From: an uncultured Candidatus Saccharibacteria bacterium
Lineage (GTDB): Bacteria; Patescibacteriota; Minisyncoccia; Phycocordibacterales; SBAW01
Direction: 5' to 3'
NCBI GenBank assembly: GCA_964615415.1
Contig: CAZTNI010000002.1
Location: forward strand, 190,745-254,744
Length of the DNA: 64,000 nt
Made by a program: the position numbers and the translations under genes. The notes beneath the pieces are model-generated. The model was not told the DNA's origin and made no database searches. It saw nothing but the letters and a program-made list of their open reading frames with translations. Shown one piece after another: positions 7,722-42,388 of this stretch; within the stretch, counting starts at the first letter, position 1; the number at the start of each line of letters is the position of its first letter.

Positions 7722-7737
7722 GATTATCTTTTTTTGC

Positions 7738-21466: not shown

Positions 21467-21919
21467 ATGGATACGCTTGGAAGCTTTATCACGGGATTGG
21501 TCATTTCAGCCACCGCTTCAGCAACTGCAGTGACTGGAGGAGCGCATGCTACAGGGGGAGAGCAGGTTACAACCGGAGACAGTTATAGTTCAGTACGAGT
21601 AGAAAATGTTATACACGCAACGAACGGAGGAGGCACGTCGTATACAAAAGTAGAAACAAACACCAACGGACACATTCAGACCGAGGAAAAAACGGAAACA
21701 TTTCCTCCCAGTTCTCACAGTTCAGTGCGAGTTCATGTAGCAACGTCTACTATTGCAAGCACTACAAAGTTGGTGGCAAGCTCTTCAGTTACGCTCGATG
21801 TAATAAGTACTACTGCGTCTTCGTCATCTACTGAGACGCAGAACCTACGAGCACGAATTGCAGAACGAGTTGCAAAGTTATTTGGACAGATATGGGGTTG
21901 GTTTTCATTTACACGGTAA
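21467..21919 (+). CDS. Small secreted protein sharing the TTGD-x-YSS...NV...TNGG motif with the two upstream repeat proteins
   Basis: Starts 3 nt after the upstream stop. GGEQVTTGDSYSSVRVENVIHATNGGG echoes the repeat core. Confidence 0.55.
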   Translation: MDTLGSFITGLVISATASATAVTGGAHATGGEQVTTGDSYSSVRVENVIHATNGGGTSYTKVETNTNGHIQTEEKTETFPPSSHSSVRVHVATSTIASTTKLVASSSVTLDVISTTASSSSTETQNLRARIAERVAKLFGQIWGWFSFTR

Positions 21920-21939
21920 TTACTCACACAACTTCAGAT

Positions 21940-24198: not shown

Positions 24199-24213
24199 AC
24201 AGGAGAAAGTTGG

Positions 24214-24441
24214 ATGCATGACGAGGCCAACAACGTCCAGGAGGTATTTGCTCCGGACGAACTCGAGCCTGGACGGCTCCCGGGGACCCAGCGTCCTACG
24301 CGGGCAGCCCTGAAAAAGAGGGGGGTGGACTTCTACGAAGGTGGAGGCCATAGCCGGGAACCCAATTTTGATTCAGGAATCGGGGGCGGGGGTCGAAAAT
24401 CGAAGTCTTTCGACCCTTCATTTGGCCAACCCAAAACCTAA
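24214..24441 (+). CDS. Possible small Gly-rich disordered protein. Low confidence; may be non-coding.
   Basis: AGGAGA Shine-Dalgarno 8 nt upstream of the ATG. Strong terminator immediately downstream. Sequence is low-complexity (GGGHS...GIGGGGRKSK). Confidence 0.2.
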   Translation: MHDEANNVQEVFAPDELEPGRLPGTQRPTRAALKKRGVDFYEGGGHSREPNFDSGIGGGGRKSKSFDPSFGQPKT

Positions 24442-24450
24442 ATCACACAC

Positions 24451-24482
24451 GACGCGCATACCCTGCGCGTCGTTTTCTTTTG
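24451..24482 (+). terminator. Rho-independent terminator
   Basis: GACGCGCAtacccTGCGCGTCgttttctttt. 8-bp GC stem plus T-run. Confidence 0.7.
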
Positions 24483-24595
24483 ACAAATAGATATTCGCAC
24501 AGTGTAAGTCACGCACGGTAATCAACATACACGACTCCCACCAAACACTGCGGTATACTGGCACTATTACAAAGTAACTGAAACGCAAGGCCGAT

Positions 24596-26548: not shown

Positions 26549-27326
26549 TAGGGAGTTCTGCAAGCTTACTAATGATGTCTTTAATGAGGCGCTCGGTATC
26601 TTCAGGACCGAGCACTTCTTCTGTTTTAATACCAGTTTCTTTTACGACAGAGTCGTTTCCGCCTTCTTCAAGCGCATCACCAATGTAGAGCATTTCCGCA
26701 ACAGTAACGTCTGCAAGTTCAACAAGTTGTCGAATACCGTATGCCTTGTTGACACCCTGATGCGTAATATCGATCGACGTTGCTGCATTTACTCCTATAG
26801 AAAATTCTGGTAGCCGACGCTTAAGGGCATCATAGAGCGGCTTCCGTTTCTCCCGAGTAGGATCCCACGCACGCTTTTCTTCAACAGGTGCTTTTTGGCC
26901 TAATGCAGAAAACGTGATCTGCGCACCTCTATCTTCTATGCGTTCACCCCACTCCTTCGGACGACTAGGATCATCTTCTGCAAAGCCAGTTTCTGTCATC
27001 GCTTCTTTCAAAGCTTGCATTACCTTTTCGCGTTCAATAGGGTTAAATGCACGATCATACTGTACCCACCACTTTCCCTTACGATACACATAACACCGCG
27101 CTGCATTCATAGGGAAGAGAAAGAGATTCTCAAAATGAGCATCCTCGGGGAGCGCAGGAAGAAACTGAGTCTCCATTTGGGCAAACGAGGCGCCTGAAAG
27201 CACCGCAACTTTTGTTTTACTCATAAGGTCTGCTAACAGAGACCCCATTTCAAGAGTGAGTGGCTGTTTACTTTCAGCGAGTGTTCCATCGAGGTCAAAC
27301 GCGACAAGTCGTGGTTTAAAATCCAT
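26535..27326 (-). CDS. HAD-IIB hydrolase resembling eukaryotic-type phosphomannomutase (PMM/Sec53 family)
   Basis: N-terminal FDLDGTL. SIGVNAATSIDITHQGVNKAYGIRQL fits the PMM GGqiSfDvfPxGWDK block. MLYIGDALEEGGNDSVV fits FFGDKT..GGNDyEI. PEDTERL fits PEDT. Confidence 0.65.
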   Translation of the reverse strand: MDFKPRLVAFDLDGTLAESKQPLTLEMGSLLADLMSKTKVAVLSGASFAQMETQFLPALPEDAHFENLFLFPMNAARCYVYRKGKWWVQYDRAFNPIEREKVMQALKEAMTETGFAEDDPSRPKEWGERIEDRGAQITFSALGQKAPVEEKRAWDPTREKRKPLYDALKRRLPEFSIGVNAATSIDITHQGVNKAYGIRQLVELADVTVAEMLYIGDALEEGGNDSVVKETGIKTEEVLGPEDTERLIKDIISKLAELPTTAS

Positions 27327-27331
27327 TGCAG

Positions 27332-29257
27332 TTATTGCAGATTATCGGGAAGTAAAATTTTCAATAATTTCTTTATCGACACCTTAGCGACACCCACTAC
27401 TGTATCAGCGCCCCCGTAATAAATGAAGAGCGTGTCTTTGCGTGGCACCACTCCGCAGGAAAAAACAACATTGCGGATCTGTCCAATGCGTTCATAGGGA
27501 GTAAGCGGCTCAAAAATAGTGTCTATGGTGCGAGAAATGATAATAGAAGGGTTGTGCAGATCGAGCAGTACCGCACCCAGACGATAGGTCGTTGTTTTTG
27601 ACACCCCGTGATAAATAAGGAGCCACCCTTTTTCCGTTTTAATAGGCGGACCAGCGATCCCGATTTTCTGTGAGTCCCACATGCCTGGACGAGGACCCAT
27701 AATCTCAATACAGCGAGTAAGGCGATTTTTCTTAAAATCAAGTGAGTCAAGAAAATCCGCGCACAGTTGGCTATTAATGCGGTGCAGCAACATATACTGC
27801 CCGCCGATTTTCTCGGGCATAAGGCACATGTTTTTATCATTGACGTTTTCTGGCGTAGCGATGACCGGTTTACTCCACGCGTTCCATTTTTTTGCAAGAA
27901 AATCCTCGACGGAGATCGTCGTTAAAGCAACATGCGTCGGATGAACACCGTCGAATGCGGTATAGGTCATGTATAAGGTGTCTTCAATGCGCGTGATGCG
28001 TGGATCTTCGCAGCCGGAATTACCATCTGGACTGCCGAGCTTTTTCTCAAATTCTTCACGCGGCACGTACACTGGTTCCGGCAATCGTTCTGTTATTTTT
28101 GTCCCATTTTTAGTTGCAGCGTATCCTAATACAGACGTATTATCGTCACCCATAGCACGATAGAGTAAGTGTACTGAGTCCTCAAGCTCAATTGCAGCCG
28201 CATTAAACACGGCTTTTTTCTCCCATGCATGTTCAGGAACAGGCGAAAGAATAGGATTTTCTTTGGCACGCACCACCAATTCCTCTCTTTTTTCAGGAAT
28301 CAGAGCAGAAAGAAGATCATCAAGATTGAGTGAGGCTTTAGCACACACTGTGTCTGCTGCACCGTAGTAAATATCTATTTTGCCGTTTTTGTGAAGCATG
28401 GCTCCTGACGGAAACACAATATTTGGCACCATGCCATACCGCTCATAGATTTCCTCCGGCACCATGATAGGGCCTTTTGTTTTGCCAACTATTTTTGTCG
28501 GGTCGTTAAGGTCAAGCAGCATTGCTTCGATACCAAACACACGCTCTCCGCCGCCAAAATAATTTTGAATGTAGGAATAAAATACGAGCCACCCGTACTT
28601 GGTTTTAATAGGAGCGGAACCAACTTCTACATGGTCAGTATCAAAACGGAGTGGATTAATGGTGTGATCTCCCAATTCTGCATGCCACTTTTCCCAAAAC
28701 GAGAGGTCCCAGAGTTCACTAAGATCATCGCACTGCGCAACCGCGATACGTGCCGGCGGCTCATCAGTGTGAGCAGTGAGAATAACTGTAATTTTACCGT
28801 TTATCCGTTCAGGGAAGAGCGCCGCAGCCTTAGCATTAAACGGCGTTACTAAATGTTTTTCATCAATGACCTCTAAGTCTTTAGAAATAGCACAGGCGAC
28901 TTTAATATTGCCCGGACCAAACGGCATACCACCAAGCGCGGTATAAAAAACAATGCATTTCCCTTCAAAATAGGTTACTCGCGGGTCTTCGCAACCGTAC
29001 TTTTCCCATGGTTCTTCCGGAACAATAAACTGTCGACGATTTTGGAAATGTTCACCGTCAAGCGAGAGTGCTTTTCCAATAGTCGAGATACCTGCTGGCG
29101 TCATAAGCGCATCAGGACGCCCAAGGGCACGATAGAGAATATGGGTTATGTTGCCAACCTTAACAGGAGAAGGGTTAAACGTAGCGCGCGCCTCCCATTG
29201 CTTATCTGCAATAGGAGCAACCAGAGGATTATTTTGACTCCGACGTACAACGTACAT
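27332..29257 (-). CDS. Protein with two tandem GH130 (DUF377) beta-mannoside phosphorylase/glycosidase domains
   Basis: Each half has NP(L/I)(V/L)xP...W...FNP...YRAxG...GCEDPR(V/I)T...KGWL(V/L)(F/I)YH...(D/N)(I/L)YYGxADT, the GH130 5-bladed propeller signature. Confidence 0.8.
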   Translation of the reverse strand: MYVVRRSQNNPLVAPIADKQWEARATFNPSPVKVGNITHILYRALGRPDALMTPAGISTIGKALSLDGEHFQNRRQFIVPEEPWEKYGCEDPRVTYFEGKCIVFYTALGGMPFGPGNIKVACAISKDLEVIDEKHLVTPFNAKAAALFPERINGKITVILTAHTDEPPARIAVAQCDDLSELWDLSFWEKWHAELGDHTINPLRFDTDHVEVGSAPIKTKYGWLVFYSYIQNYFGGGERVFGIEAMLLDLNDPTKIVGKTKGPIMVPEEIYERYGMVPNIVFPSGAMLHKNGKIDIYYGAADTVCAKASLNLDDLLSALIPEKREELVVRAKENPILSPVPEHAWEKKAVFNAAAIELEDSVHLLYRAMGDDNTSVLGYAATKNGTKITERLPEPVYVPREEFEKKLGSPDGNSGCEDPRITRIEDTLYMTYTAFDGVHPTHVALTTISVEDFLAKKWNAWSKPVIATPENVNDKNMCLMPEKIGGQYMLLHRINSQLCADFLDSLDFKKNRLTRCIEIMGPRPGMWDSQKIGIAGPPIKTEKGWLLIYHGVSKTTTYRLGAVLLDLHNPSIIISRTIDTIFEPLTPYERIGQIRNVVFSCGVVPRKDTLFIYYGGADTVVGVAKVSIKKLLKILLPDNLQ

Positions 29258-29285
29258 ACCGTAGTACTTAGTATACTCGAACTTT

Positions 29286-30440
29286 TTATGCGCCAGCTGG
29301 ACGCAATACAGCCTGTTGGTTGGTCATTAGTTTTTCTACAAACTCGCGTATGTCGGCATGTGCAACGGCAACATGCTTGTCACCCGCACCGTAATACACA
29401 AACAAGGTATTTCCCATGACTACAGCGCCGCATGCATACACAACACCAGGTTTCCAGTCGTTTTCATACTGTTTCTCTGGCTCAAGCACAGGGTGATTAG
29501 AGCGATACAGCACACGGGTTGGATCATCAAGGTCAAGAAGCATGGCGCCAATTTTATACTTGTTTGGATCACGTTTATCCATTGCATGATAAAGTAGCAG
29601 CCATCCTTTAGGAGTTTTAATAGGAGGAGGTCCGGCACCACGTACCCAGCTATCCCAATACTCCTCCCGAGCAGTGGGATGGTAGACGCTGTGGATGTAC
29701 GCTTCGTTATTAAATTGAGATAACGAGTCAACGTATTCAATTTGAATAGTAGGGGAAATACTGTGTAAAACAGCATACTTGCCGTGTATTCTTTCCGGAA
29801 ACATCACCCAATTTTTGTTAATTTCTCCAGGAGGAGAGAGGAAGGCGGTTGGTTTCCACTCCCAGGACTGTTGTCTAAATTTAGGAAGGGGGAGTGACGT
29901 AAGTCCCATGCGGATAAATCCCCACCCATCAAACGCGACAAAGGTCATATATAGTTGCCCATTCATGCTCACAATACGAGGATCTTCAACACCGCCCCAA
30001 CCTCCACCAGAGGGGTACGTTACCGTGTCGTACGTAAGAGTGCCATAAGACAGCCGACCCTTTGGCGCGCCAAAACTGCGGTCTGGCGCATAGACTGGGT
30101 AGGGAAGACGGTCGAAGTGAATACCGTCGGCACTTGAGGCATACCCGATGCGCGAAATACCGTCTTTACCCATCGCCCGGTACAGCAAATGCACCCGACC
30201 ATCAAAATAAAATGCTGCTGGATTGAAAACGGCTTCAGATTCCCACCAATGTTCGCGTATTGGTTTTAAAATAGGATTTTCTGCTTCGCGCACGAGGGCA
30301 ATAGGCCGGCGAATTTGACGAAGCCAAAAGACAAAGAGAGCGACACATACAACCAAAACGACTATAGTCGCAGCAAAAAATGCTATACCGTTTCCGTGGT
30401 ATATCTCCATTACAAAAGCCGCAAGCAAAGAAGTCTCCAT
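29286..30440 (-). CDS. GH130 (DUF377) family protein with an N-terminal membrane anchor
   Basis: TM segment IAFFAATIVVLVVCVALFVFWL. Motifs ENPILKP...WESEAVFNPAAF...LLYRAMG...VEDPRIV...KGWLLLYHA...YYGAGD. Confidence 0.8.
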   Translation of the reverse strand: METSLLAAFVMEIYHGNGIAFFAATIVVLVVCVALFVFWLRQIRRPIALVREAENPILKPIREHWWESEAVFNPAAFYFDGRVHLLYRAMGKDGISRIGYASSADGIHFDRLPYPVYAPDRSFGAPKGRLSYGTLTYDTVTYPSGGGWGGVEDPRIVSMNGQLYMTFVAFDGWGFIRMGLTSLPLPKFRQQSWEWKPTAFLSPPGEINKNWVMFPERIHGKYAVLHSISPTIQIEYVDSLSQFNNEAYIHSVYHPTAREEYWDSWVRGAGPPPIKTPKGWLLLYHAMDKRDPNKYKIGAMLLDLDDPTRVLYRSNHPVLEPEKQYENDWKPGVVYACGAVVMGNTLFVYYGAGDKHVAVAHADIREFVEKLMTNQQAVLRPAGA

Positions 30441-30469
30441 TGCCTTACCGTGTCTCTATATTGTACACC

Positions 30470-30823
30470 CTAGTTCCTGCCGTATTTGTCTTGGAAGCGT
30501 ACTATATCGTTTTCTTCAAAGACACCGAGAGCAACTTCAAGAAATTGCAGGCCCTGCGGCCCCGCCTCTACTCTATGTTTAGTATTTTTTGCAACAAAAA
30601 ACTCGTCTCCAGGCTGCACGTGAGAGATCTTTTCACCTACCGTCACACTTCCCGAACCTCGGAGGATTTTCCATTCTTCATCGCGGTGGGCGTGTTGCTG
30701 CAAACTCAGCGATTGACTAGGTTCTACGGTGATTATTTTTACCGTCGAAGGCTCATTAAGAGTAAAACGCTCAAAAAATCCCCACGGACGCTCTTCTTTG
30801 TAATAATGTTGAAAACTTTTCAT
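30470..30823 (-). CDS. Cupin resembling the mannose-6-phosphate isomerase type II (ManC C-terminal) cupin domain
   Basis: EERPWGFFERF...VKIITVEPSQSLSLQQHAHRDEEWKILRGSGSVTVGE...ENDIVRFQDKYGR matches the PMI type II cupin pattern. Confidence 0.7.
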   Translation of the reverse strand: MKSFQHYYKEERPWGFFERFTLNEPSTVKIITVEPSQSLSLQQHAHRDEEWKILRGSGSVTVGEKISHVQPGDEFFVAKNTKHRVEAGPQGLQFLEVALGVFEENDIVRFQDKYGRN

Positions 30824-30834
30824 AATACAGACGA

Positions 30835-31236
30835 TCAGCGATTATATTTATCTTCCAAGCGTTCGATATCATTTTCATCAAATTCCCCAAAAGCAATTTC
30901 CACCAACAGCAGACCGTCGTCTTTGTGTCCCTCGAGGCGATGAAGGGTAGTACGCGGGATAAAAAAACCTTCTGGTTTATATATTTCCACGCGCTCGGTG
31001 CCCACTGTGACATATCCCGCACCAGATACAATGCGCCAAAATTCATCGCGCTTTTGATGTCGCTGTAAACTAAGGGCTTCGCCAGGTTTTACAAAAATAA
31101 TCTTTACCGTTGAGTGCTCTTGGTGAGTTAATTTTTCAAACATCACCTTTTCAAGCTCTGTGCGTTCATATGCACTCAACTGGCGAGCATGATCAGGAAA
31201 TAAATCCGTAGATTGCATGCATATACGGTAGCACAC
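30835..31236 (-). CDS. Second PMI-type cupin (paralog of 30470..30823). N-terminus uncertain.
   Basis: VKIIFVKPGEALSLQRHQKRDEFWRIVSGAGYVTVG...ENDIERLEDKYNR. Alternative internal Met starts possible. Confidence 0.65.
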   Translation of the reverse strand: MCYRICMQSTDLFPDHARQLSAYERTELEKVMFEKLTHQEHSTVKIIFVKPGEALSLQRHQKRDEFWRIVSGAGYVTVGTERVEIYKPEGFFIPRTTLHRLEGHKDDGLLLVEIAFGEFDENDIERLEDKYNR

Positions 31237-31627: not shown

Positions 31628-31664
31628 GAGTCCATACCCTATGAGTATGGACTCTTTTCTTTTT
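31628..31664 (+). terminator. Rho-independent terminator (+ strand)
   Basis: GAGTCCATACcctatgaGTATGGACTCttttcttttt. 10-bp stem plus T-run. Confidence 0.65.
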
Positions 31665-32524
31665 CATAGTTCCTCTATACGCAGGTTTTTAAATTGCACG
31701 TCCATAAAGTCGGTACGGAGGCCTACGGGCGCCTTAGCTCGTAAGGGCTCGGTCTGGGCATAGTTCCCCGTATCGGTCGCCTCAAGCAAGAGTTCCCATG
31801 AATCTTCTAAAGAGCGACGCAGGTAGAGCCGCACCGTAACAGAGGAATCAGAGTTCGTAATTGCTTCACTTTGTAAAGAAAACCACTGTCGCTGCGGCAG
31901 GAGACTGGTGTCGTCTTGCGAGCCAACATACGTTCCTTCAAATGCTGCGGCTTGGGCCATGGTGTAGTACACTCCTTCCACTTTTTTCTTAATCACTGCA
32001 GTGCCGTCTACCCGCACACCTGCGTAATACAAATTGTCACTATCGACATGTCGCATCATAAATAAAATACCGTTTGAAGCATTGCGATTAGAGCTTGGCA
32101 AAAAATTGTCTCGCTCTATATAAAAATCTTCTGAGATACGCACCTGTTCCCACGCACTACGAGTAAGCAGACGAAATATATTTTGTGGCTGCGCACCATT
32201 TTTCGTATCTTCTGGATCACTTGCTTGATATGCTCGATACCACTGGTCGGTTTCGGACAAGTTACCAAAGAGTGTACTTCCTGTGTGGTTACTAATACGT
32301 AGCCGGCCACCTGAATTGAGCCAAAAGTACGGACTTTTACTTTCCTCTGGAGTCGCGGCTTCTTCTAACACCCCATCTACATTGAAACTGTATATAAATG
32401 GAGAGGGCACAGAAGCATAATTTTTCTCATGGGGTGCAAAGATAACAAAGGCGAGGGTAAGCCCTCCCGCAACCGCAAGCAAAGTTCCTCCTAGGTGTTG
32501 TATTGATTCAGGTACCTTCACCAC
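31664..32524 (-). CDS. Secreted/anchored concanavalin-like (LamG/DUF1080-like) jellyroll protein. Paralog A of the 46125..46946 gene.
   Basis: N-terminal hydrophobic anchor. Shared blocks with paralog B: PQNIFRL, LYYAGVRVDG.A.IKKK, LLP...W, NNSD.SVT..LY, RTDFMDV.F.N. Confidence 0.7.
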   Translation of the reverse strand: MVKVPESIQHLGGTLLAVAGGLTLAFVIFAPHEKNYASVPSPFIYSFNVDGVLEEAATPEESKSPYFWLNSGGRLRISNHTGSTLFGNLSETDQWYRAYQASDPEDTKNGAQPQNIFRLLTRSAWEQVRISEDFYIERDNFLPSSNRNASNGILFMMRHVDSDNLYYAGVRVDGTAVIKKKVEGVYYTMAQAAAFEGTYVGSQDDTSLLPQRQWFSLQSEAITNSDSSVTVRLYLRRSLEDSWELLLEATDTGNYAQTEPLRAKAPVGLRTDFMDVQFKNLRIEEL

Positions 32525-34131
32525 GTATATGTTTTTGCCGACACGTTAGTAATTATTGCATCTGCACTACCCATAGCAGGGTCCCAGGATTCTATACCAA
32601 TGCCACCTGATGCATTTGCAAGAGTTGCATTAATAATCTCTTCTCCGTCAAACAAACACTTAACTGTTGTACCGATACTGACCGCACCAATCGTGTGAGT
32701 TCCTGGTCCCACCTCGGGGGCTTTTGCTTCGCGCAATACGAATATGTCTACAGGAGTACGCTCCTGCAGCTGTACAGTGCCTGCATCAGAAAACACACAC
32801 GCACGCGCTATTTGCTCACTCTGTACGTCAAACAACAACATCATGTATCCATGATCCCACGCAGCAGATACTTCTACTTCATATTCGTCCCATGTATAGG
32901 TACCGTCCAATGTTGCAAGAGCGCCCGTAGTGCTTGAAGCAGCACGCAGTCGCATGCCACCACTTTCCATAGTCATAGTGCCCCAATCACTCTCCCATCC
33001 ACTCTCTACATGCGGAGTTTCGCCGTAAGGAAGAGCTTTTGGAGACGCCGCCTGCAAACGGGCAAGCAGGTCGTCACCCGACCATTCTGGCCGCACCGGA
33101 ATGCGTTTAATTAGAAACGCTCGGGGATTAGGATAATTAAAGGTAAAATTTCCTCTATTCCAGTTTTGATAAAACGCCAACGAATATGACTGCAGTGCGA
33201 TACGCATTATAGTTGCTTGCGCCTCGGGGTTATTGCTTATATTTTGTCCATAATCACCAAACGGGAAAGCGAATCCAGTAACGGGTATATCAAATGCCTG
33301 TTCTATATGTTGTTTAGCAGTAGCCAAGTCGGTGTGTATGCGGGCAGCATACTCCTCGTGAGTTTCGAGACGGTTGTGTGCCGTAAGCCACGCACGGTTC
33401 GACAGCGCATTATCTTGCAAAGTACCTTCACTGTTTGTAGGTACAGTAGTGTGTATATCTTGCCCGTGTGACTGTACGGTCCACCGACCGGTCGAGAGCA
33501 TAAACTCTACTTCGTCCCGATTCAGATAATAGGTGCTGTTGTTACCAAGTGAGTGAGACGGGAGCAAAAACATAACAGCACTATAATCCAGCGCCTCCAG
33601 AAGAGGTTGTACAGGATAGAAGCTTTCTTTCGCACCATCATCAAAAGTAAGCAGAAATGATTTTTCCGGTAATTGTTTTTCCCCACGGATAAAAGCTTCA
33701 AAATCCGCATAAGAAACCGTTTGCCACCCCGCGGCCTTAAGAGCAAACAGCTGATCTTTAAAGGTATCAAGGCGTACGTTGGCTCCCTCAAAACCAGACA
33801 TTGTATCAGGTGCGCCTGTACTGTTGGAGACAATAGAGTGATAGGTCAGCACGGGAACCCCTTGCGCGTACGACGTACGCACAGTAGGGAGGAGTTCGTG
33901 CGTAATCGACTCAGGCACTGCAGCAAGGAGACTAATTCCTTGTTGTCGTGCAAGATATTCAGCACGATACTGCAACGCCATAACAGACATCTTTTGCCGT
34001 TCGAAAGAGAATCGCAAATAATCTATAGCGTAAAAACTACCAAAGGAAATGATCGTTGCCAAAATAAGCACCACGATAGAAAATCGTATTTTGGTGTCCA
34101 CTATACTGCGCTGTAACGTAAGTAGTGCCAT
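32518..34131 (-). CDS. Membrane-anchored CE4 polysaccharide deacetylase with a C-terminal lectin-like jellyroll domain
   Basis: N-terminal TM. VLTYHSI...LLTFDDGAKESFYPV...AFPFGDYG NodB motifs. C-terminal ~170 aa ending ...GGIGIESWD...AIITNVSAKTY resemble a concanavalin-like domain. Confidence 0.8.
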   Translation of the reverse strand: MALLTLQRSIVDTKIRFSIVVLILATIISFGSFYAIDYLRFSFERQKMSVMALQYRAEYLARQQGISLLAAVPESITHELLPTVRTSYAQGVPVLTYHSIVSNSTGAPDTMSGFEGANVRLDTFKDQLFALKAAGWQTVSYADFEAFIRGEKQLPEKSFLLTFDDGAKESFYPVQPLLEALDYSAVMFLLPSHSLGNNSTYYLNRDEVEFMLSTGRWTVQSHGQDIHTTVPTNSEGTLQDNALSNRAWLTAHNRLETHEEYAARIHTDLATAKQHIEQAFDIPVTGFAFPFGDYGQNISNNPEAQATIMRIALQSYSLAFYQNWNRGNFTFNYPNPRAFLIKRIPVRPEWSGDDLLARLQAASPKALPYGETPHVESGWESDWGTMTMESGGMRLRAASSTTGALATLDGTYTWDEYEVEVSAAWDHGYMMLLFDVQSEQIARACVFSDAGTVQLQERTPVDIFVLREAKAPEVGPGTHTIGAVSIGTTVKCLFDGEEIINATLANASGGIGIESWDPAMGSADAIITNVSAKTYTW

Positions 34132-34151
34132 AGAATTTTACCTAGACTGTG

Positions 34152-35531
34152 TTAACGCGTACCCCACCGCCGATTTTGAATAGTAAGGAGGGCATAGAAG
34201 AGAAGGAACGATAGTATCACCATGTTGAAGATGCCCCACACAAACAGATACGGCCAGTATTTATTATCTTTACTAACGTATCGGTAGTAGACCACTATCA
34301 CAAACGCCACCAACAACATGCCGGCGCAGTAGTAGATAGGCAAATTGCCATGCACAATTGGGTTGTACACAAGCGCTCGTGTAGCCATAATCGGCGCAAG
34401 TATAGTCACCAGAATAAGAGGGAAAAAGTACGTAAACGCCACAAATGCGTCTCGTTTAATGATGAATTTGCTTGCGCGAAGCGAATTTACAAACCACCCT
34501 TTCTTCCAGCGCACCTGCTGTTTAAAGAGGGTTTTTATATTTGTAGGACAGATAGTAAACGCCTGCACTTCATCGGTATATACGGTTGCATAGCCTCGCT
34601 CCAGAACTCGGTTAGTAAGCGCACGATCGTCGCCCCATGTAGTTGGAAGTCCGAGGAATTTTTCTTCGAGCCATTCGTCCATAATAGGAGCTACCACTGA
34701 TTTGCGGTACGCGGACGAACATCCACTACAACAAAACACGGTAAAGAAGGTTGACTCCGCTGCTTTCAGGATGCGAAACGACATAAAGTAATACGCCGCC
34801 TGCATTTTAGTAAGGAAGTTAGTGTCGGCATTTTCCGGGTCAGCATGTGCACAGACAGCCCCTACAGATGGGTTACGGAACGGTTCTATCAGCTTTCTGA
34901 ATGTCGTTGGCTCAATGTAACTATCACTATCGAGCTGTACGACAATTTCTCCACGAGCGATCCGAAACCCTTCATACATGCCGTGTCGCTTGCCGCGATT
35001 TTTCTCCCATGTCACCACAACCAAGTTCGGATACTGCGCTTGTTTTTCTGCAAGGACCGCACCGGTGCCGTCTGTCGATCCGTCATTAATAATAATGACT
35101 TCGAGCTTATCTTTTGGATAATCGCTCGCAAAACATTTATCGACGGTTTTTCCTATGGCTCCTTCTTCGTTTTTACAAGGCACCACATATGTCACCATAG
35201 GCTCATAGGGGATTTCTTCGGGCACAGACGCAGCCTTAAGGAGTCGTTTTGAACGATCGTACATAACCGCTCCCGCAACACGCGACAACTGAAATGTGGT
35301 CACAAACAAGGTGTAGAGCACAATAAGGGGGTCAAAGAGCAGATGCTCAGTTGATTTTGACTTTACGATCAGGATAAGCAGTATGCCGACACCCGCTAAT
35401 ATGAGCGAAATAAGCAGGTTGCCTCGTGTATGCGAAGCGGGCTCGCGCACCACCGTCGCATTATTTTTTAGAAGCGGAGCAAAAGAAGTACTCCGCACTC
35501 GAATGTCGTTCATGGGGGTACGCATGCTCAT
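34152..35531 (-). CDS. Processive family-2 glycosyltransferase (cellulose/chitin/hyaluronan/PNAG synthase-like) with TM helices on both sides of the catalytic domain
   Basis: VVPCKNEE...IINDGSTDGT (D), QLDSDSY (DxD), GDDRALT, QVRWKKGW (QxxRW processivity motif). Two N-terminal and 3-4 C-terminal TM helices. Confidence 0.85.
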   Translation of the reverse strand: MSMRTPMNDIRVRSTSFAPLLKNNATVVREPASHTRGNLLISLILAGVGILLILIVKSKSTEHLLFDPLIVLYTLFVTTFQLSRVAGAVMYDRSKRLLKAASVPEEIPYEPMVTYVVPCKNEEGAIGKTVDKCFASDYPKDKLEVIIINDGSTDGTGAVLAEKQAQYPNLVVVTWEKNRGKRHGMYEGFRIARGEIVVQLDSDSYIEPTTFRKLIEPFRNPSVGAVCAHADPENADTNFLTKMQAAYYFMSFRILKAAESTFFTVFCCSGCSSAYRKSVVAPIMDEWLEEKFLGLPTTWGDDRALTNRVLERGYATVYTDEVQAFTICPTNIKTLFKQQVRWKKGWFVNSLRASKFIIKRDAFVAFTYFFPLILVTILAPIMATRALVYNPIVHGNLPIYYCAGMLLVAFVIVVYYRYVSKDNKYWPYLFVWGIFNMVILSFLLFYALLTIQNRRWGTR

Positions 35532-35545
35532 GTGGGGTTTTGTTT

Positions 35546-36919
35546 TTATCTACCAATGCCGCGATATGCGATTCCTGCTTCTTCAAATGCTTCTTTGGAG
35601 AGACAGTTGCGCCCATCGATTACACTCGTAACGCCGTACTCTTTCAGGATAGTAGGGGAAAGGCTGGTAAACACATCATGTGCGGTCGCAATAACCACTG
35701 CATCTGCACCACGCAACGCTTCGCTCAGTGTCAGCGCGGTGGAATGCTCATGAATAAACGGATCGAACGAGCGCACGCGAGCAGCACGATTGGTAAGGAT
35801 CTTTGCTATCTCAAGCGCCGGACTCTCGCGCAAATCGCTCATATTTGCCTTATAGGAAAGCCCGAGGAGTGCCACGGTCGCATGCTCAATACTCTTGCCT
35901 TGCTTACGCAACTCTTCTTCAAGGAGAGAAACAGTAAAGGTCGGCATGCCGTTATTAATGTCTCGTGCCAAGGAAAGGAATCGATGCGTGAAGCCGTTTT
36001 CCTTCGCATAGCGAATAAGGTAGTACGGGTCGACAGGAATGCAGTGCCCGCCCACCCCACACCCTGGCGTATGCAACATAAAACCGAATGGCTTTGTCGC
36101 CGCACCTTGGAGCACGTGCAGTACGTCGATATTAAGTTTCGCAAACGACATGGCAAGCTCGTTCACGAACGCAATATTCACATCACGGAAAGAATTTTCC
36201 ACCATTTTGACCGCCTCTGCTTCTTTAATGGTGTGCATACGGTGGATAGGTGCACGCAAAATAGATGTATAGAATGCCGCAGCTTGTTCGCGCGCTTCTT
36301 TCGTTGTTGCGCCAAGTACGCGTGAGATTTTTTCTACCGGCCAGCGAGCGTCACCTGGATTGATACGTTCTGGACAATGTGCGAAGCCGAAATCTTTTCC
36401 TGCCTTCAGTCCAGAAATTTTTTCCATAGCAGGAATAAGAATCTCTTCTGCAGTACCAGGATTCACAGTAGATTCTGAAATGATCAATTGCCCCTTGCGC
36501 ATATGACGAGCAACCGCTTCACACGCACTCTTCAGGATCGTAAGGTCGGGAGTATGCGTATGATCTACCGGAGTAGGCACACAAATAATAACCGTGTCTG
36601 CATCTTTCACCGCGGCAAAGGTACTCTGCGCAACAAATGGTTCACGCCTAAGAGCCGCAGTAAAAACTTCATCCAGGTCGGGCACATCTGCACGACGTAT
36701 CTGGGCACGCTTTTTAGCGTCCACATCGATTCCTGTTACGGTATATCCTCGATCCCGTGCAAGAAGGGCGAGCGGCAAGCCGACATACCCGAGCCCCACG
36801 ACAACGACATGAGCAATCGCTACAGAAGAATGCGCAGGGGATGCTGCGGCGCTGACTGGAACTCCTCGAGACGCTTCGTGCTGTTTTTTCTCAGGTTGAA
36901 TTATTTGTTTCATATACAA
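35546..36919 (-). CDS. Nucleotide-sugar 6-dehydrogenase of the UDP-N-acetylhexosamine dehydrogenase (WecC/WbpA/TviB-like) subfamily
   Basis: Rossmann VVVVGLGYVGLPLALLARDRGY. ICVPTP. Catalytic-Cys motif GGHCIPVDP (the GGHC form rather than GGSC). C-terminal UDP-binding domain. Confidence 0.85.
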   Translation of the reverse strand: MYMKQIIQPEKKQHEASRGVPVSAAASPAHSSVAIAHVVVVGLGYVGLPLALLARDRGYTVTGIDVDAKKRAQIRRADVPDLDEVFTAALRREPFVAQSTFAAVKDADTVIICVPTPVDHTHTPDLTILKSACEAVARHMRKGQLIISESTVNPGTAEEILIPAMEKISGLKAGKDFGFAHCPERINPGDARWPVEKISRVLGATTKEAREQAAAFYTSILRAPIHRMHTIKEAEAVKMVENSFRDVNIAFVNELAMSFAKLNIDVLHVLQGAATKPFGFMLHTPGCGVGGHCIPVDPYYLIRYAKENGFTHRFLSLARDINNGMPTFTVSLLEEELRKQGKSIEHATVALLGLSYKANMSDLRESPALEIAKILTNRAARVRSFDPFIHEHSTALTLSEALRGADAVVIATAHDVFTSLSPTILKEYGVTSVIDGRNCLSKEAFEEAGIAYRGIGR

Positions 36920-36994: not shown

Positions 36995-37035
36995 GATGAG
37001 GAGGTCGTGGCTTAACCGCTCGCGACCTCCTCATC
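36995..37035. repeat. Perfect 13-bp inverted repeat (stem-loop) without a U-tract, in the intergenic region upstream of the dehydrogenase/GT2 operon
   Basis: GATGAGGAGGTCG...15 nt...CGACCTCCTCATC read directly. No flanking T-run on either strand. Confidence 0.5.
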
Positions 37036-39055: not shown

Positions 39056-39637
39056 ATGGAATTTCTTTTGCAGCTTATACTGGACTATCGTTACTGGGTA
39101 CTCTTTCCCTTAGCATGTATCGAGGGACCCATTATTGGATTTGTGGCGGGCGTACTTGTGGCGGCAGATTTTTTTAATCCAATCGTCGTGTTTGGCGTCC
39201 TCATAGCAGGAGACGTGGTTCCTGACATAACCTACTACTGTATTGGTCGGTTTGGAAATAAAAAAGGATTTTTGGAACGCCTTCAAAAAAAATTACGGAT
39301 TCCTGATGAACAACTTACTAAAGTGCAGGAATTGTGGCACACCCGCACCACCCGCACGATGTTTATCACAAAGTTTGCATATGGGTTATCTACACCACTT
39401 TTAGTGACAGCGGGACTAGTACGACTCCCATTTAAAAAATTTATTCTGCACACCTCCTCACTTTCGGTCTTGCAATACAGCGTACTCATGACTCTGGGGT
39501 ATTTTTTAGGAAGTTCGTATAGTCTTGTAGAGGACGGCTTCTTACGAATCCAGATTTTTACTGCCGGTGTCGCAATTTTTGCAGGAATATTTTATTTTTT
39601 TGGAAAAAGTATTCGTCGGTTTTTTTGGCAAAACTAA
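39056..39637 (+). CDS. DedA (SNARE-associated) family membrane protein
   Basis: RYWVLFPLACIEGPIIGFVAGVL...AGDVVPDITYYCIGRFGNKKG typical of DedA. Start placed at the MEFLLQL Met. Confidence 0.75.
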   Translation: MEFLLQLILDYRYWVLFPLACIEGPIIGFVAGVLVAADFFNPIVVFGVLIAGDVVPDITYYCIGRFGNKKGFLERLQKKLRIPDEQLTKVQELWHTRTTRTMFITKFAYGLSTPLLVTAGLVRLPFKKFILHTSSLSVLQYSVLMTLGYFLGSSYSLVEDGFLRIQIFTAGVAIFAGIFYFFGKSIRRFFWQN

Positions 39638-40797
39638 GGAGATACGACTCGGGCATATATATCTTCCCAAGCATCTGCAATACGTGCTGGGGTAAATTGC
39701 TCTACAAATGTTTTTCCTTTTTCTCCCATACTCTGGCGCAACGAAGGAGAGCGCAGCAGTTGTTCCATCCGCTCTGCAAGTTCTTCAATATTTCCTGGTT
39801 CAACCAAAAAACCACACTCCTCTGGAGTGTAGTCCACAAGCCCTCGAGAACGGGCAGCGATTGCAGGCACACCATGTGCGTAGGCCTGCATTAACGACAG
39901 CGATTGCGTTTCTGCTGTCGACATGATGACGTACAAGTCAGAGGCACAGTAGAGCTCTGCCAGCTCTGCAGCACCAACGAAACCAACAAATCGCACCTGC
40001 TCTGCAACGCCGCAATCTTTCGCTAATTGTCGCAAATCAGCTTCGGCTGCGCCGCGTCCAGTAATAATAAGATGTGCGTTAGGGATATGTGTGCGGACTT
40101 TTGCAAACGCTTCAATAACAACATCGACACATTTTTCAGGTGCTAAACGACCCGAGACCAGCACCACCGGACCATCAATAGTCATCTTGTTTTTATACGC
40201 CGCACGAACTTCATCTTTTTGAAGCTGAGGGACCGGTGGCACAGGGTTTGCCTGACCCTTGCCCGGTTTTTTAAAGCCGACCGTACGCATCGCGTCAAGT
40301 AGTCCTTGGTATGGAGCGGTCACGAAGCGACAACGATTGTAGTAAAACGCATCATAGCGACGAGCAAGCGGGGCAAGAAATTCGCCCACAGGAATATACG
40401 CTACGAACTCTTCTATCGGCGTATGGTTAGTACCGACAAGCGGCACACGTAACAATCGCGAGGCAAGCAGCGCTTCTAATCCAACACCATACGGCGACTG
40501 GGTGTGAATAATATCCGGCTTAAACTTTTTTAAAAAAGGAATTGATGCGCCGAACGGAATAGCAAAACGCGATTGTCCGGTAGGAGAATTCGGCACGCCA
40601 ATGGAAGGGAGTCTCTTTACTGTCAGAGCATCTTTTTCTGGATGTGTATTTCCTTTGTATGCACCGGCAGGGTAGTGGGGAGCCACGTACACCACGTCGT
40701 GTCCGCGCTTCCGTAATTCTTCTCCGGTCGTAATGATCGAATCGGAAATACCGCTTAACTCCGGGTAAAAATTGTCAGAAAAATACGCGATACGCAT
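39634..40797 (-). CDS. GT4 (GT-B, Glycos_transf_1) glycosyltransferase
   Basis: MRIAYFSDNFYPELSGISD N-terminal domain. C-terminal ...LYVIMSTAETQSLSLMQAYAHGVPAIAARSRGLVDY...EPGNIEELAERM matches GT4. Confidence 0.85.
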   Translation of the reverse strand: MRIAYFSDNFYPELSGISDSIITTGEELRKRGHDVVYVAPHYPAGAYKGNTHPEKDALTVKRLPSIGVPNSPTGQSRFAIPFGASIPFLKKFKPDIIHTQSPYGVGLEALLASRLLRVPLVGTNHTPIEEFVAYIPVGEFLAPLARRYDAFYYNRCRFVTAPYQGLLDAMRTVGFKKPGKGQANPVPPVPQLQKDEVRAAYKNKMTIDGPVVLVSGRLAPEKCVDVVIEAFAKVRTHIPNAHLIITGRGAAEADLRQLAKDCGVAEQVRFVGFVGAAELAELYCASDLYVIMSTAETQSLSLMQAYAHGVPAIAARSRGLVDYTPEECGFLVEPGNIEELAERMEQLLRSPSLRQSMGEKGKTFVEQFTPARIADAWEDIYARVVSP

Positions 40798-40833
40798 GTA
40801 GATTTATATATAGCGTGAGTATACTATAGGATC

Positions 40834-41571
40834 ATGAAACTCAGCTTTGTGATCCCTGCGTATAACGAGGAAGCGCGGGTGGGGAAGTGTTTAGAATCTG
40901 TACTGAAAGAAATAGCAGGAAAAGAGGGGATTGAAGTAGTTGTGGTTAACAACGCCTCAACGGACCGCACCAAAGAAATTGCGATGGGCTTCCCCGGCGT
41001 ACGTGTTGTCGATGAAATGCAAAAAGGTCTCGTACGCGCTCGACAAGCAGGCTACAAAGCAACAACAGGCGAACTTATTGCAAATGTCGATTCTGACACA
41101 ATACTACCCCAGGGATGGGTTACGAAGGTGCTCCGCGCATTTGAAACAGACCGCACGTTAGTTGCGCTCAGCGGACCATATATATACTACGATCTTTCAC
41201 TGCTCAATCGCGCTCTCGTAAAACTGTTTTACTTCTTTGGATACGTGTTTTACCTCATCAACCACTTTATCCTCCACAAAGGCGCCATGCTCCAAGGAGG
41301 CAACTTTATTTTGCGCCGCACCGCACTCGACAAAATTGACGGCTTTGACACCTCAATCGAATTTTATGGCGAAGACACAGACATCGCGAACCGCATTAGC
41401 AAGGTCGGCAAAGTGCGCTGGACATTTAGCCTCCCGATGTACACCTCAGGGCGCCGCCTTAAAGAAGAAGGGGTGCTGCGTATGGGCTACAAATACGCAC
41501 TTAACTTTTTAGTCGTCACGTTTCGCGGCAAGCCGCACACCAAAGACTACAAAGATATTCGTTCCTCTTAA
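40834..41571 (+). CDS. GT2 (GT-A) glycosyltransferase
   Basis: SFVIPAYNEEARVGKCLESVL...VVVNNASTDRT...NVDSDTILPQGW. Confidence 0.85.
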   Translation: MKLSFVIPAYNEEARVGKCLESVLKEIAGKEGIEVVVVNNASTDRTKEIAMGFPGVRVVDEMQKGLVRARQAGYKATTGELIANVDSDTILPQGWVTKVLRAFETDRTLVALSGPYIYYDLSLLNRALVKLFYFFGYVFYLINHFILHKGAMLQGGNFILRRTALDKIDGFDTSIEFYGEDTDIANRISKVGKVRWTFSLPMYTSGRRLKEEGVLRMGYKYALNFLVVTFRGKPHTKDYKDIRSS

Positions 41572-41574
41572 TTG

Positions 41575-42351
41575 TTAGAGGATAATGAAGACAAAAAAGA
41601 GCGCCGCTATCACGATACGGTAGATACCAAACGGTATAAACGTGTGGCTACGCACGAAACGCAGCAGAGCTTTCATGCTGAGGAGTGCCACTGCAAACGC
41701 CGCGATAAAGCCTATAAAAAGCAGGCCGAACTGCTCGCTTGAAAACAGCGCAGCGTTTTTGTAGATGTCGTAAGTTGTGGCCATAGCCATAGTGGGCACC
41801 GCAAGCAAAAAAGAAAACTGCACTATAGCGACACGCGGCACTCCGAGGAGCAACCCTCCGACGATAGAAGCTGCAGAGCGCGACACTCCCGGCACAATCG
41901 CTATCGACTGAAATAGTCCCACTCCTACCGCTTGTTTGAGGCTAATAGTTTCAATAGAGTGCTGTTCGTCAGAACCACTTCGCTCTTTATGGAGCAGTTC
42001 AAAGACAATGAGCGCAATACCTCCCAGAAATAGCGCCCACACCACTACAACTGGGTTGCCGAGGAGATACTGCTTTGCAAATTCGTAAACAGTAAACCCT
42101 ATGATCGCAGTCGGTACAAATCCTGCTGCAATTTTGGTGAGAATGGGGAGCGAAAGAAAAGATTTCCAATACAGAACAACCACCGCCGCAATAGCGCCGA
42201 GCTGGATTGCGATCTCGAAACTCTTCAGAAATTCAGTCGTGGGTATGCCCAGCAGTGTGCTCGCCAAAATAAGGTGGCCCGTCGAGGAAATAGGTAGAAA
42301 CTCGGTTATTCCTTCAATTACGCCAAGGATAAGGGCTTCAAACCAGCTCAT
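41575..42351 (-). CDS. uppP: Undecaprenyl-diphosphatase (BacA/UppP)
   Basis: MSWFEALILGVIEGITEFLPISSTGHLIL. 8 TM helices. Confidence 0.9.
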   Translation of the reverse strand: MSWFEALILGVIEGITEFLPISSTGHLILASTLLGIPTTEFLKSFEIAIQLGAIAAVVVLYWKSFLSLPILTKIAAGFVPTAIIGFTVYEFAKQYLLGNPVVVVWALFLGGIALIVFELLHKERSGSDEQHSIETISLKQAVGVGLFQSIAIVPGVSRSAASIVGGLLLGVPRVAIVQFSFLLAVPTMAMATTYDIYKNAALFSSEQFGLLFIGFIAAFAVALLSMKALLRFVRSHTFIPFGIYRIVIAALFFVFIIL

Positions 42352-42388
42352 ATGCACTCACGATACCACAGTATCGGCGCGTGTTCAG

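Follow-up and report, generated by a model that had tools for sequence, protein, structure and literature searches.

Which polymer would be made by a locus that places a processive-type glycosyltransferase between a nucleotide-sugar dehydrogenase and a polysaccharide deacetylase? The preliminary description of the window (the whole 64,000-nucleotide stretch analysed) compared such a locus at 32518–36919 to HasA/HasB and PgaC/PgaB systems. It proposed an acidic, partly de-N-acetylated product and considered the module notable in a presumably reduced genome. Three co-directional minus-strand ORFs occupy exactly this interval, with domains and motifs that match the assigned functions and family-match E-values (1e-13 to 1e-120) far beyond chance.

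A four-gene operon and its surroundings

The first gene encodes the nucleotide-sugar 6-dehydrogenase (DH; 35546–36913, minus strand), with 455 residues from an ATG at 36913. A TTG at 36919 had been taken as the start, but the ATG is likelier and was also called independently. After 14 nt follows the gene for the integral-membrane GT2 synthase (34152–35531, minus strand; 459 residues, or 453 if translation starts at Met7) and, after a further 20 nt, that for the membrane-anchored polysaccharide N-deacetylase of carbohydrate esterase family 4 (CE4; 32518–34131, minus strand; 537 residues). A fourth gene (ORF286; 31664–32524, minus strand; 285/286 residues), which overlaps the CE4 stop codon with its start, encodes a protein with a TM helix and a jelly roll. 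The three genes first recognized are correct, but this fourth member and the neighbouring two-component system had been missed. Together, DH, GT2, CE4 and the jelly-roll protein form a tightly packed four-gene operon of an ultra-small Patescibacteria/CPR (Parcubacteria-type) bacterium. GlmS is also encoded within the window, and was counted in favour of a surface-polysaccharide operon.

A perfect 10-bp hairpin (31628–31654, given without strand) lies 10 nt past the fourth-gene stop and is separated from the next gene by 427 nt. This hairpin probably marks the operon end as a putative terminator. A T-run accompanies it on the side of the plus strand, whereas on the minus strand it is preceded by an A-run, so that we only infer a role in minus-strand termination.

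The two-component system is encoded directly upstream of the operon on the same strand. It consists of a small histidine kinase (37219–38283, minus strand; Pfam HisKA and HATPase_c) and an OmpR-type response regulator (38207–38896, minus strand; Response_reg and Trans_reg_C). Related regulators (49–57% identity) and/or kinases adjoin the module in 10 of 35 related loci. The regulator/kinase pair is contiguous, with no gene between, in three of those loci (L010, L025 and L035), and two of them (L025 and L035) have the same RR-HK-DH-GT2-CE4-ORF286 order as the window. As a candidate regulator, the system may control expression of the operon.

The synthase forms its own clade in the HAS/NodC group

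The GT2 sequence contains the motifs expected of a processive-type synthase: D150, DSD (201–203), GDDR (300–303, within GDDRALTN at 300–307), QQVRW (338–342, within QQVRWKKGW at 338–346) and a terminal WGTR (456–459). The GT domain is flanked by hydrophobic helices at 38–56, 64–82, 363–381, 397–415 and 433–451. These features agree with the D, DxD, GDD and QxxRW motifs and flanking TM segments of the preliminary description. Pfam assigns Glycos_transf_2 at 110 bits and Chitin_synth_2 at 46 bits, the latter also above the Pfam threshold. GT2 has over 1,700 homologues, of which the best 120 listed come from Patescibacteria and share 60–84% identity with it.

GT2 has the sequence motifs and topology of a class I hyaluronan synthase (HAS), namely D, DxD, GDDRxLTN, QxxRW, WGT(R) and flanking TM helices. 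The likeness to this class, which includes the Bacillus anthracis/B. cereus pXO1 HasA (encoded with hasB/hasC), CvHAS and Xenopus HAS1, covers a core of ~420–460 residues in which a GT-A domain is preceded by two TM helices and followed by further ones at the C-terminus. GT2 shares GDDRALTN, QQVRWKKGW and the terminal WGTR with B. anthracis HasA and CvHAS, in the general form DxD, GDDRxLTN, QQxRWxK and (near-)terminal WGT(R). Among solved structures, the best matches to the GT2 family profile are XlHAS1 (133 bits) and CvHAS (105 bits), compared with 35 bits for BcsA and 29 bits for chitin synthase; both HAS matches continue through the C-terminal TM segment as far as WGT(R). However, core identity to the HAS enzymes is 27–32%, and GT2 has CSGCSSAY where HAS has GGPL or SGPL.

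In a neighbour-joining tree (277 columns, 200 bootstraps, few reference sequences), GT2 falls inside the HAS/NodC group with 100% bootstrap support. The CPR GT2 enzymes and a PilZ-containing GT2 from Paenibacillus form a clade of their own (100%) that is sister to HAS+NodC (81%). Within this tree, GT2 nests among the three HAS sequences in only 2% of bootstrap replicates and groups with NodC in 0%. The earlier description of GT2 as HasA-like holds at the level of the group, but the enzyme is not nested in HasA or NodC. The alternative PgaC-like assignment was rejected: the PNAG synthases PgaC and IcaA group apart from GT2 in a clade with 100% support, and the PgaC/IcaA model (TIGR03937) gives 135 bits relative to a cut-off of 422.

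As a processive-type member of the HAS/NodC group, GT2 is predicted to be the polymerase, and it is probably the chain exporter as well. Because its clade is separate, the products of HAS, NodC and chitin synthase cannot be assigned to it.

A deacetylase predicted to face outward and a jelly-roll protein

CE4 is composed of an N-terminal TM and stalk helix (residues 2–64, with the TM helix at 18–36), a PgaB/IcaB-type CE4 domain (~90–345) and a C-terminal CBM66/DUF1080-like jelly roll (~375–537). By the positive-inside rule, the enzyme is predicted to face outward. The Polysacc_deac_1 model scores 50 bits and the PgaB N-terminal model 105 bits. CE4 contains TFDD at 162–165 and retains all five PgaB catalytic and metal residues (the PgaB-type His / Asp-Asp / His-His set), four of which are invariant among 50 homologues. 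These features agree with the membrane deacetylase of the preliminary description, and CE4 is predicted to be a membrane-anchored polysaccharide N-deacetylase. The comparison with PgaB applies to the catalytic domain, which is nearest to PgaB and IcaB and has the complete residue set. It does not extend to full-length PgaB: the 322-bit equivalog cut-off is missed, and the C-terminal glycoside hydrolase domain is absent, its place being occupied by the CBM66-like jelly roll.

The PgaB/IcaB-like catalytic domain and the 135-bit PgaC/IcaA score of GT2 are the points in favour of a PNAG (poly-β-1,6-GlcNAc) system of the PgaC/PgaB or IcaA/IcaB type. We consider such a system highly improbable, given the exclusion of GT2 from the PNAG synthase clade, the GDDR and WGTR motifs that replace TEDID and WVSPDRG of PgaC, and the missing hydrolase domain. 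Neither PgaA nor a conserved PgaD/IcaD-like partner was found; the clustered ORFs of the 35 loci (at least 90 aa; PgaD and IcaD are small) include no extra conserved gene that separates or flanks the GT2-CE4 pair.

The pairing of synthase and deacetylase also resembles nodB–nodC. NodC belongs to the same GT2 group and uses a GlcNAc-based substrate, it is the top NCBIfam model for GT2 (171 bits), and the sister group of the GT2 clade is HAS+NodC. A NodC/NodB-like pair would make short, partly deacetylated chitooligosaccharides as signals or primers, and no long polymer. This is very unlikely. The NodC score is far below the 550-bit equivalog cut-off (TIGR04242), identity to NodC is 26–28%, NodC has DWLSR where GT2 and HAS have WGTR, and a grouping with NodC has no bootstrap support. 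NodA is absent, and the 35 loci have no acyltransferase in common. NodB is a soluble cytoplasmic enzyme, whereas CE4 is of the membrane-anchored, outward-facing PgaB type and contains an extra lectin-like domain.

The fourth protein combines a TM helix at its N-terminus with a concanavalin-A-like β-jelly roll, and represents a conserved family without any Pfam match. Its jelly roll and that of CE4 match the same top PDB entries, and longer paralogues bear Fn3, LamG or Ig domains, like surface binding proteins. The protein probably binds (or processes) the polymer at the cell surface.

The closest non-CPR GT2 in annotated collections (36–39% identity, 100% clade support) is encoded by a Paenibacillus cellulositrophicus plasmid operon comprising PilZ-GT2, CE4-jelly roll and GH18 genes. 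The order of GT2 followed by TM-CE4-jelly roll is the same as in the window. The Paenibacillus operon differs in the N-terminal PilZ domain of its GT2, in the GH18 gene that takes third place instead of the jelly-roll protein and in having no DH. Its downstream CE4 is catalytically degenerate (FED, with Asn for His), and a canonical CE4 is located upstream. The arrangement is a classic one for c-di-GMP-regulated exopolysaccharides, and the chitinase-family (GH18) partner points to a GlcNAc backbone.

An accessory dehydrogenase and the likely polymer

DH matches all three UDPG_MGDP_dh Pfam domains and, with 400 bits for TIGR03026 (cut-off 190), is a nucleotide-sugar dehydrogenase. A closer relationship to UDP-HexNAc than to UDP-glucose dehydrogenases had been proposed and is borne out by HMM comparison: the archaeal UDP-ManNAc dehydrogenase, WecC and TviB models score 319, 247 and 230 bits, respectively, versus 183, 161 and 50 bits for UDP-glucose dehydrogenase models. 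In the PDB, DH matches Pyrococcus horikoshii 4r16 at 268 bits and Cap5O at 214 bits, but UDP-glucose dehydrogenase structures at no more than 147 bits; CalS8, a TDP-glucose dehydrogenase in the same branch, scores 214 bits. The catalytic motif is GGHC (residues 288–291), in contrast to GGSC or GGYC in UDP-glucose dehydrogenases. DH shares its three domains and the sequence GGHCIxVDP with WecC, Cap5O, WbpA and TviB and, judged from sequence, belongs to their UDP-N-acetylhexosamine branch and not to the UDP-glucose dehydrogenases. Neither outcome named beforehand as refuting the proposal, a GT2 outside the processive-synthase families or a DH among the UDP-glucose dehydrogenases, was thus observed. 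It is not assigned to a single substrate (ManNAc, GlcNAc or GalNAc) because each score lies below its equivalog cut-off (319 versus 750, 247 versus 459 and 230 versus 592 bits). In the window and the 35 loci, tblastn with Escherichia coli WecB gave no match to a UDP-GlcNAc 2-epimerase of the ManNAcA route, and no Epimerase_2 match was found among the window ORFs scanned with Pfam. The partner of DH is a synthase-type GT2, unlike the Wzy- or ABC-type pathways of its relatives.

These results bear on whether the locus makes genuine hyaluronan (or a heparosan-like polymer of GlcA and GlcNAc) and is the equivalent of hasA–hasB, with DH as a UDP-glucose 6-dehydrogenase. The dehydrogenase gene lies directly upstream of the synthase, as in has operons, and the HAS-like motifs and structure matches fit this idea. 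In addition, a GalU homologue is present at one related locus (L028), and JGI labels homologues ‘hyaluronan synthase’. We nevertheless regard a hyaluronan operon as very unlikely, slightly more so than the NodC/NodB-like pair. Contrary to the HasA/HasB-like label of the preliminary description, DH is not a HasB orthologue: it shares 32% identity with E. coli WecC, but 28% with B. anthracis HasB and 24% with E. coli Ugd, and the partner in has operons is a UDP-glucose dehydrogenase that supplies UDP-GlcA. Those operons contain neither a CE4 nor a jelly-roll protein, whereas here CE4 is always and the jelly-roll protein usually present. The rare nesting of GT2 within HAS also argues against this assignment.

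GT2 and CE4 are adjacent in all 35 related loci, and the jelly-roll gene is present in 27 of them. The last three operon genes recur in many lineages of Patescibacteria. DH, GT2 and CE4 are also found together in an actinomycete contig with 69% GC, so that these three genes are linked outside Patescibacteria too. The module is thus not a single curiosity of one reduced genome. DH adjoins GT2 in 14 of 27 informative loci, with one further locus having DH downstream. GT2 enzymes with and without DH share 58.8% identity, similar to the 57–61% within each group, and no GT2 position segregates with the presence of DH in this comparison. GT2 may therefore not use the uronic sugar as a substrate. For the same reasons, the conserved core is predicted to be the GT2-CE4(-jelly-roll) set, directing a synthase-dependent, extracellularly de-N-acetylated GlcNAc-type polymer. 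Of the acidic, partly de-N-acetylated product originally proposed, the de-N-acetylation belongs to this core; the acidic component, which depends on a DH adjacent in 14–15 of 27 loci, is plausible here but accessory.

A chitin/chitosan-like homopolymer is possible but doubtful. GT2 would then use only UDP-GlcNAc (β-1,4), CE4 would convert part of the product to GlcN, and DH would serve another glycoconjugate or be dispensable. The Chitin_synth_2 match, the universal CE4, the Paenibacillus homologue paired with GH18 and no DH, and the roughly one-half of loci in which DH does not adjoin GT2 are all consistent with this, as is the lack of DH-specific GT2 residues. However, where DH occurs it is encoded in the same direction as its partners and at a very short distance (14 nt in the window), and it is linked to GT2 and CE4 in the actinomycete as well. 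Loci without an adjacent DH may encode one elsewhere in the genome, and fungal and oomycete chitin synthases are far more distant than HAS (29 versus 133 bits).

We favour, with a probability of roughly 0.55, a four-gene synthase-dependent operon for a GlcNAc-containing surface polysaccharide that is trimmed by CE4 and optionally contains uronic residues. On the inner side of the membrane, GT2 would use UDP-sugars to polymerize a β-linked chain that contains GlcNAc, and would thread it outward through its own TM domain; the sugar, the linkage and the chain length are inferred. A single membrane is generally reported for Patescibacteria, and in such a cell outer-membrane components would be unnecessary. 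Outside the cell, tethered CE4 would remove some N-acetyl groups, and the CE4 jelly roll and the fourth protein may bind the polymer at the surface, retaining and possibly trimming it. DH, co-transcribed here and in roughly every second relative, would supply a 6-oxidized (uronic) sugar nucleotide. If this were a second or optional GT2 substrate, the polymer would be both acidic and, through deacetylation, basic. In this bacterium, the products of the operon most likely make and trim a surface polymer based on N-acetylglucosamine.

Organization of the operon

ORF calling recovered all three co-directional minus-strand genes of the preliminary description: a nucleotide-sugar 6-dehydrogenase (DH; 35546..36913/36919, 455/457 aa), a glycosyltransferase family 2 membrane synthase (GT2; 34152..35531, 459 aa) and a membrane-anchored family-4 carbohydrate esterase, a polysaccharide N-deacetylase (CE4; 32518..34131, 537 aa). 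An independent gene call on L045, a public contig with an identical GT2 protein, gives products of 455, 453 and 537 aa. A fourth minus-strand ORF outside the originally described set (31664..32524, 285/286 aa) has its start overlapped by the CE4 stop and encodes an N-terminal TM helix followed by a jelly roll. The intergenic distances are 14 nt between DH and GT2 and 20 nt between GT2 and CE4, and a perfect 10-bp hairpin (31628..31654) and then a 427-nt gap lie 3′ of the fourth ORF. This spacing, the overlap, and the terminal hairpin and gap point to a single four-gene operon. Every motif listed earlier for GT2, DH and CE4 is present, and hydrophobic helices flank those of GT2.

The 300-nt spacer between the stop of the upstream histidine kinase and the DH start contains a strong 13-bp hairpin (36995..37035, minus strand; GATGAGGAGGTCG ... 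CGACCTCCTCATC) that has no T-run after it and could be the end of the kinase transcript or a leader structure of the operon. A promoter scan returned 9 candidates against 8.1 expected from shuffled sequence, and we therefore claim no promoter. Scanning the window for Rfam families and tRNAs gave no match.

Immediately downstream, the operon is followed by a mannoside-phosphorylase-like block (26535..31236, minus strand), which encodes a PMM-like HAD phosphatase, a 641-aa double GH130 protein (447 bits against the beta-1,2-mannobiose phosphorylase model, cut-off 450), a TM-anchored 384-aa GH130 protein and two PMI-type cupins. We asked whether its GH130, cupin and PMM genes belong to the module and rejected this: they are separated from the operon by the 427-nt gap and hairpin, and they are treated as a separate unit because they adjoin GT2 in no other locus. 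Two further large surface CE4 proteins are encoded at 21892..26548 (plus strand), one of 768 aa (CBM4_9, CE4, He_PIG, cadherin and PG_binding_1 domains) and one of 650 aa (CBM4_9 and CE4), in a region rich in envelope glycan-modifying genes. Further genes of this kind encode GlmS (14152..15984), a GT4 and another GT2 (39634..41571) and UppP (41575..42357). Near this envelope gene cluster is a 707-aa hybrid sensor kinase (43079..45202, plus strand) with a MASE1 membrane sensor, HisKA/HATPase and a receiver.

Three further side observations concern plus-strand genes. A 986-aa leucyl-tRNA synthetase (1943..4903) carries a NUDIX hydrolase domain (residues 389–512, 62 bits) just past the editing domain, an insertion that is unusual for this enzyme. 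In a 278-aa protein (10368..11204), an ATP-cone at the N terminus is joined to the catalytic domain of an Mrr-type restriction endonuclease; this protein could be a nucleotide-sensing nuclease. The ribonucleotide reductase small subunit (62174..63466) has an N-terminal ATP-cone (82 bits), a domain more usual on the large subunit.

Placement of the synthase and conservation of the module

GT2 contains D150, DSD (201–203), GDDR (300–303) and QQVRWKKGW (338–346), with hydrophobic helices before (38–56, 64–82) and after (363–381, 397–415, 433–451) the catalytic domain motifs. It scores 171 bits against the NodC model (cut-off 550), 135 bits against PgaC/IcaA (cut-off 422) and, above threshold, 46 bits against Pfam Chitin_synth_2. 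Among solved structures its best matches are hyaluronan synthases (HAS). A profile of the GT2 family (38 members) matches Xenopus HAS1 at 133 bits and Chlorella virus HAS at 105 bits, in alignments that extend across the C-terminal membrane region as far as the WGT(R) at the end; BcsA of E. coli and of Rhodobacter reaches about 35 bits and an oomycete chitin synthase 29 bits. The top match on annotated plasmids is an uncharacterised Paenibacillus GT2 (36% identity, 253 bits), followed by B. anthracis pXO1 HasA (31%, 167 bits), NodC (28%, 144 bits) and PgaC (26%, 119 bits). The WGDDRALTN, KQQVRWKKGW and C-terminal RRWGTR-stop of GT2 closely resemble FGDDRCLTN, KQQLRWNKSF and GWGTR-stop in HasA. 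The first and last of these elements differ from their counterparts in NodC (GEDRHLT and DWLSR) and PgaC (TEDIDIS and WVSPDRG).

Neighbour-joining trees were built on 172 columns and on 277 columns, the latter with 200 bootstraps. The GT2 family, the Paenibacillus enzyme, HAS and NodC form a group at 100% support, and PNAG synthases form their own clade, also at 100%. The processive-synthase membership proposed in the preliminary description therefore holds. Its observation is confirmed, and its interpretation, which named HasA/HasB- or PgaC/PgaB-like systems, is supported in part; a PgaC/IcaA identity for GT2 is rejected by the model cut-off, the motifs and both trees. Within the HAS/NodC group, the GT2 family and the Paenibacillus enzyme form a clade (100%) to which HAS plus NodC is sister (81%); nesting of GT2 within HAS receives 2% support and grouping with NodC 0%. 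GT2 thus represents a distinct third branch, and its product therefore cannot be read from HAS or NodC.

GT2 has more than 1,700 relatives in the database, the best 120 of which are 60–84% identical. Most of the matches listed are unlabelled, and all that carry an organism label are assigned to Patescibacteria, Paceibacterota or Parcubacteria; many bear the JGI label ‘hyaluronan synthase’. Scanning a genome set with a single representative of each species yielded 35 GT2 loci, in which ORFs were called and then clustered. Their labels include Doudna-, Harrison-, Nomura-, Wildermuth-, Giovannoni- and Moranbacteria, among which synthase identity is 56–84%; the Micrarchaeota, Gammaproteobacteria and Pseudomonadales labels on a few loci look like mis-binning. 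All 35 loci have CE4 next after GT2 in the same orientation, and the fourth-gene family occurs in 27 of the 35, mostly directly 3′ of CE4 and often with additional paralogues. An OmpR-type regulator and/or histidine kinase lies nearby in 10 of 35 loci, and the complete window order (regulator, kinase, DH, GT2, CE4, fourth gene) recurs in two (L025 and L035). In one locus (L028), the module is followed (7712..8566) by a homologue of the UTP-glucose-1-phosphate uridylyltransferase GalU that shares 50% identity with the B. anthracis pXO1 protein; it recalls hasC of has operons, yet GalU adjoins the module in just this 1 of 35 loci.

The CE4 protein has a TM helix (18–36) and a TFDD motif (162–165). 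Its AlphaFold2 model (mean pLDDT 92) consists of a long N-terminal helix (TM plus stalk, 2–64), the CE4 domain and a C-terminal beta-jelly roll. Homology between this C-terminal domain and the fourth protein found no support in profile–profile comparison, which was not significant (probability 2%), although the two have a fold in common. The fourth-protein family has no Pfam match.

An uncharacterised operon homologous to the module is found in a Firmicute, on the Paenibacillus cellulositrophicus plasmid NZ_CP045296.1 (261845..269475). It encodes, in order, a canonical CE4, a 625-aa GT2 carrying a PilZ domain at its N terminus, a TM-CE4-jelly roll protein in which the catalytic residues have degenerated, and a GH18, the last in the slot held by the jelly-roll protein in the CPR (Patescibacteria) operons. 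PilZ-GT2, CE4 and GH18 together are a typical arrangement for c-di-GMP-controlled, synthase-dependent exopolysaccharides. This operon is probably a c-di-GMP-regulated system for a chitin-like exopolysaccharide, and its chitinase-family GH18 partner points to a beta-GlcNAc backbone.

The dehydrogenase and its possible coupling to the synthase

DH carries the catalytic motif GGHC (288–291) and passes the nucleotide-sugar dehydrogenase subfamily model TIGR03026 (400 bits). It was initially assigned to the UDP-GlcNAc/ManNAc rather than the UDP-glucose dehydrogenases, and the family models agree: the archaeal UDP-ManNAc dehydrogenase, WecC and TviB models score 319, 247 and 230 bits, versus 183, 161 and 50 bits for UDP-glucose dehydrogenase models. 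Matches to structures are led by P. horikoshii 4r16 (268 bits), followed by Cap5O and the TDP-glucose dehydrogenase CalS8 (214 bits each), M. mazei GalNAcA dehydrogenase (190 bits) and UDP-glucose dehydrogenases (at most 147 bits). Identity is 32% to E. coli WecC, 28% to B. anthracis HasB, 24% to E. coli Ugd and 39% to the best plasmid-borne matches, from Rhizobium; 3 of the 40 plasmid matches listed have a depositor label of UDP-GlcNAc or UDP-glucose dehydrogenase. DH falls below every equivalog cut-off, so that GlcNAc, ManNAc, GalNAc and even glucose on another nucleotide are all candidate sugars. Homology searches of the window and the 35 loci, with Pfam for the window, found no WecB-type UDP-GlcNAc 2-epimerase, which weakly favours direct oxidation of UDP-GlcNAc as the predicted route.

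The association of the two genes bears on whether DH feeds GT2. DH lies immediately upstream of GT2 in 14 of the 27 loci having at least 1.5 kb of upstream sequence and downstream in one further locus (L021); in about 55% of informative loci, scattered over the GT2 tree, the two genes are neighbours and point the same way. Coupling is favoured by this association, by the 14-nt gap in the window and by the intact DH-GT2-CE4 trio on L026, a 2.1-Mb contig labelled ‘uncultured Actinomycetes’ (CAWHIU010000002.1). This contig is compositionally ameliorated, with 69% GC throughout, and its GT2 is 58–67% identical to the CPR enzymes, reflecting either very high cross-phylum conservation or a transfer old enough for base composition to adjust. 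Against coupling, about half of the loci have no adjacent DH; these genomes may encode DH elsewhere, or the uronic sugar may be optional or unrelated. No GT2 position tracks DH presence (best split score 0.22 between DH-linked and DH-less enzymes), and identity between the two groups (58.8%) is similar to that inside each (57–61%).

A candidate surface polymer of Parcubacteria-type lineages

The best-supported reading is that the operon makes a surface polymer containing GlcNAc by a synthase-dependent route; we infer sugar identity, linkage, chain length and regulation. The HAS-related synthase would polymerise and export the chain, the tethered PgaB-type CE4 would partially de-N-acetylate it outside the cell, and the jelly-roll modules would engage the polymer at the surface. 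In the window organism, the UDP-HexNAc-type DH would probably add an acidic building block. A bolder reading is that Parcubacteria-type CPR and a few Actinomycetes might use the HAS-related synthase for an undescribed heteropolymer, similar to hyaluronan but with an N-acetylhexosaminuronic acid instead of glucuronic acid. Alongside GlcNAc it would contain GlcNAcA, or else ManNAcA should these genomes encode an epimerase at another site. Partial de-N-acetylation by the dedicated tethered CE4 would then give a zwitterionic coat held by Pfam-less, membrane-anchored lectin-like proteins. We put this tentative proposal at roughly one chance in five.

Each of the four proteins has a known fold, and three can be assigned to known families. 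The literature we searched contains no account of this gene combination, of the separate GT2 clade or of the fourth-protein family, nor, for CPR/Patescibacteria, of the module, whether uronic or chitosan-type. The bacterial chitin synthases surveyed in 2016 are division 1 enzymes of eukaryotic derivation and not the family described here (PMC5122149). Within the HAS/NodC synthase group, the GT2 family makes up a third bacterial branch beside a c-di-GMP-linked Firmicute relative, a placement relevant to the divergence of hyaluronan, chitin and Nod-factor synthases.

CPR bacteria are mostly uncultured and many are attached to host cells; to our knowledge, next to nothing is known of their surface glycans. 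Incorporation of the DH product would make the polymer chemically new; otherwise, it would be a bacterial chitosan-type coat. The heteropolymer coat, if real, could serve as an envelope or attachment layer that is general to these host-dependent cells. With its conserved synthase and fixed synthase/deacetylase/lectin-like arrangement, the operon offers a concrete, testable surface-polymer candidate for Parcubacteria-type lineages, and its enzymes can be expressed and assayed without growing the organism.
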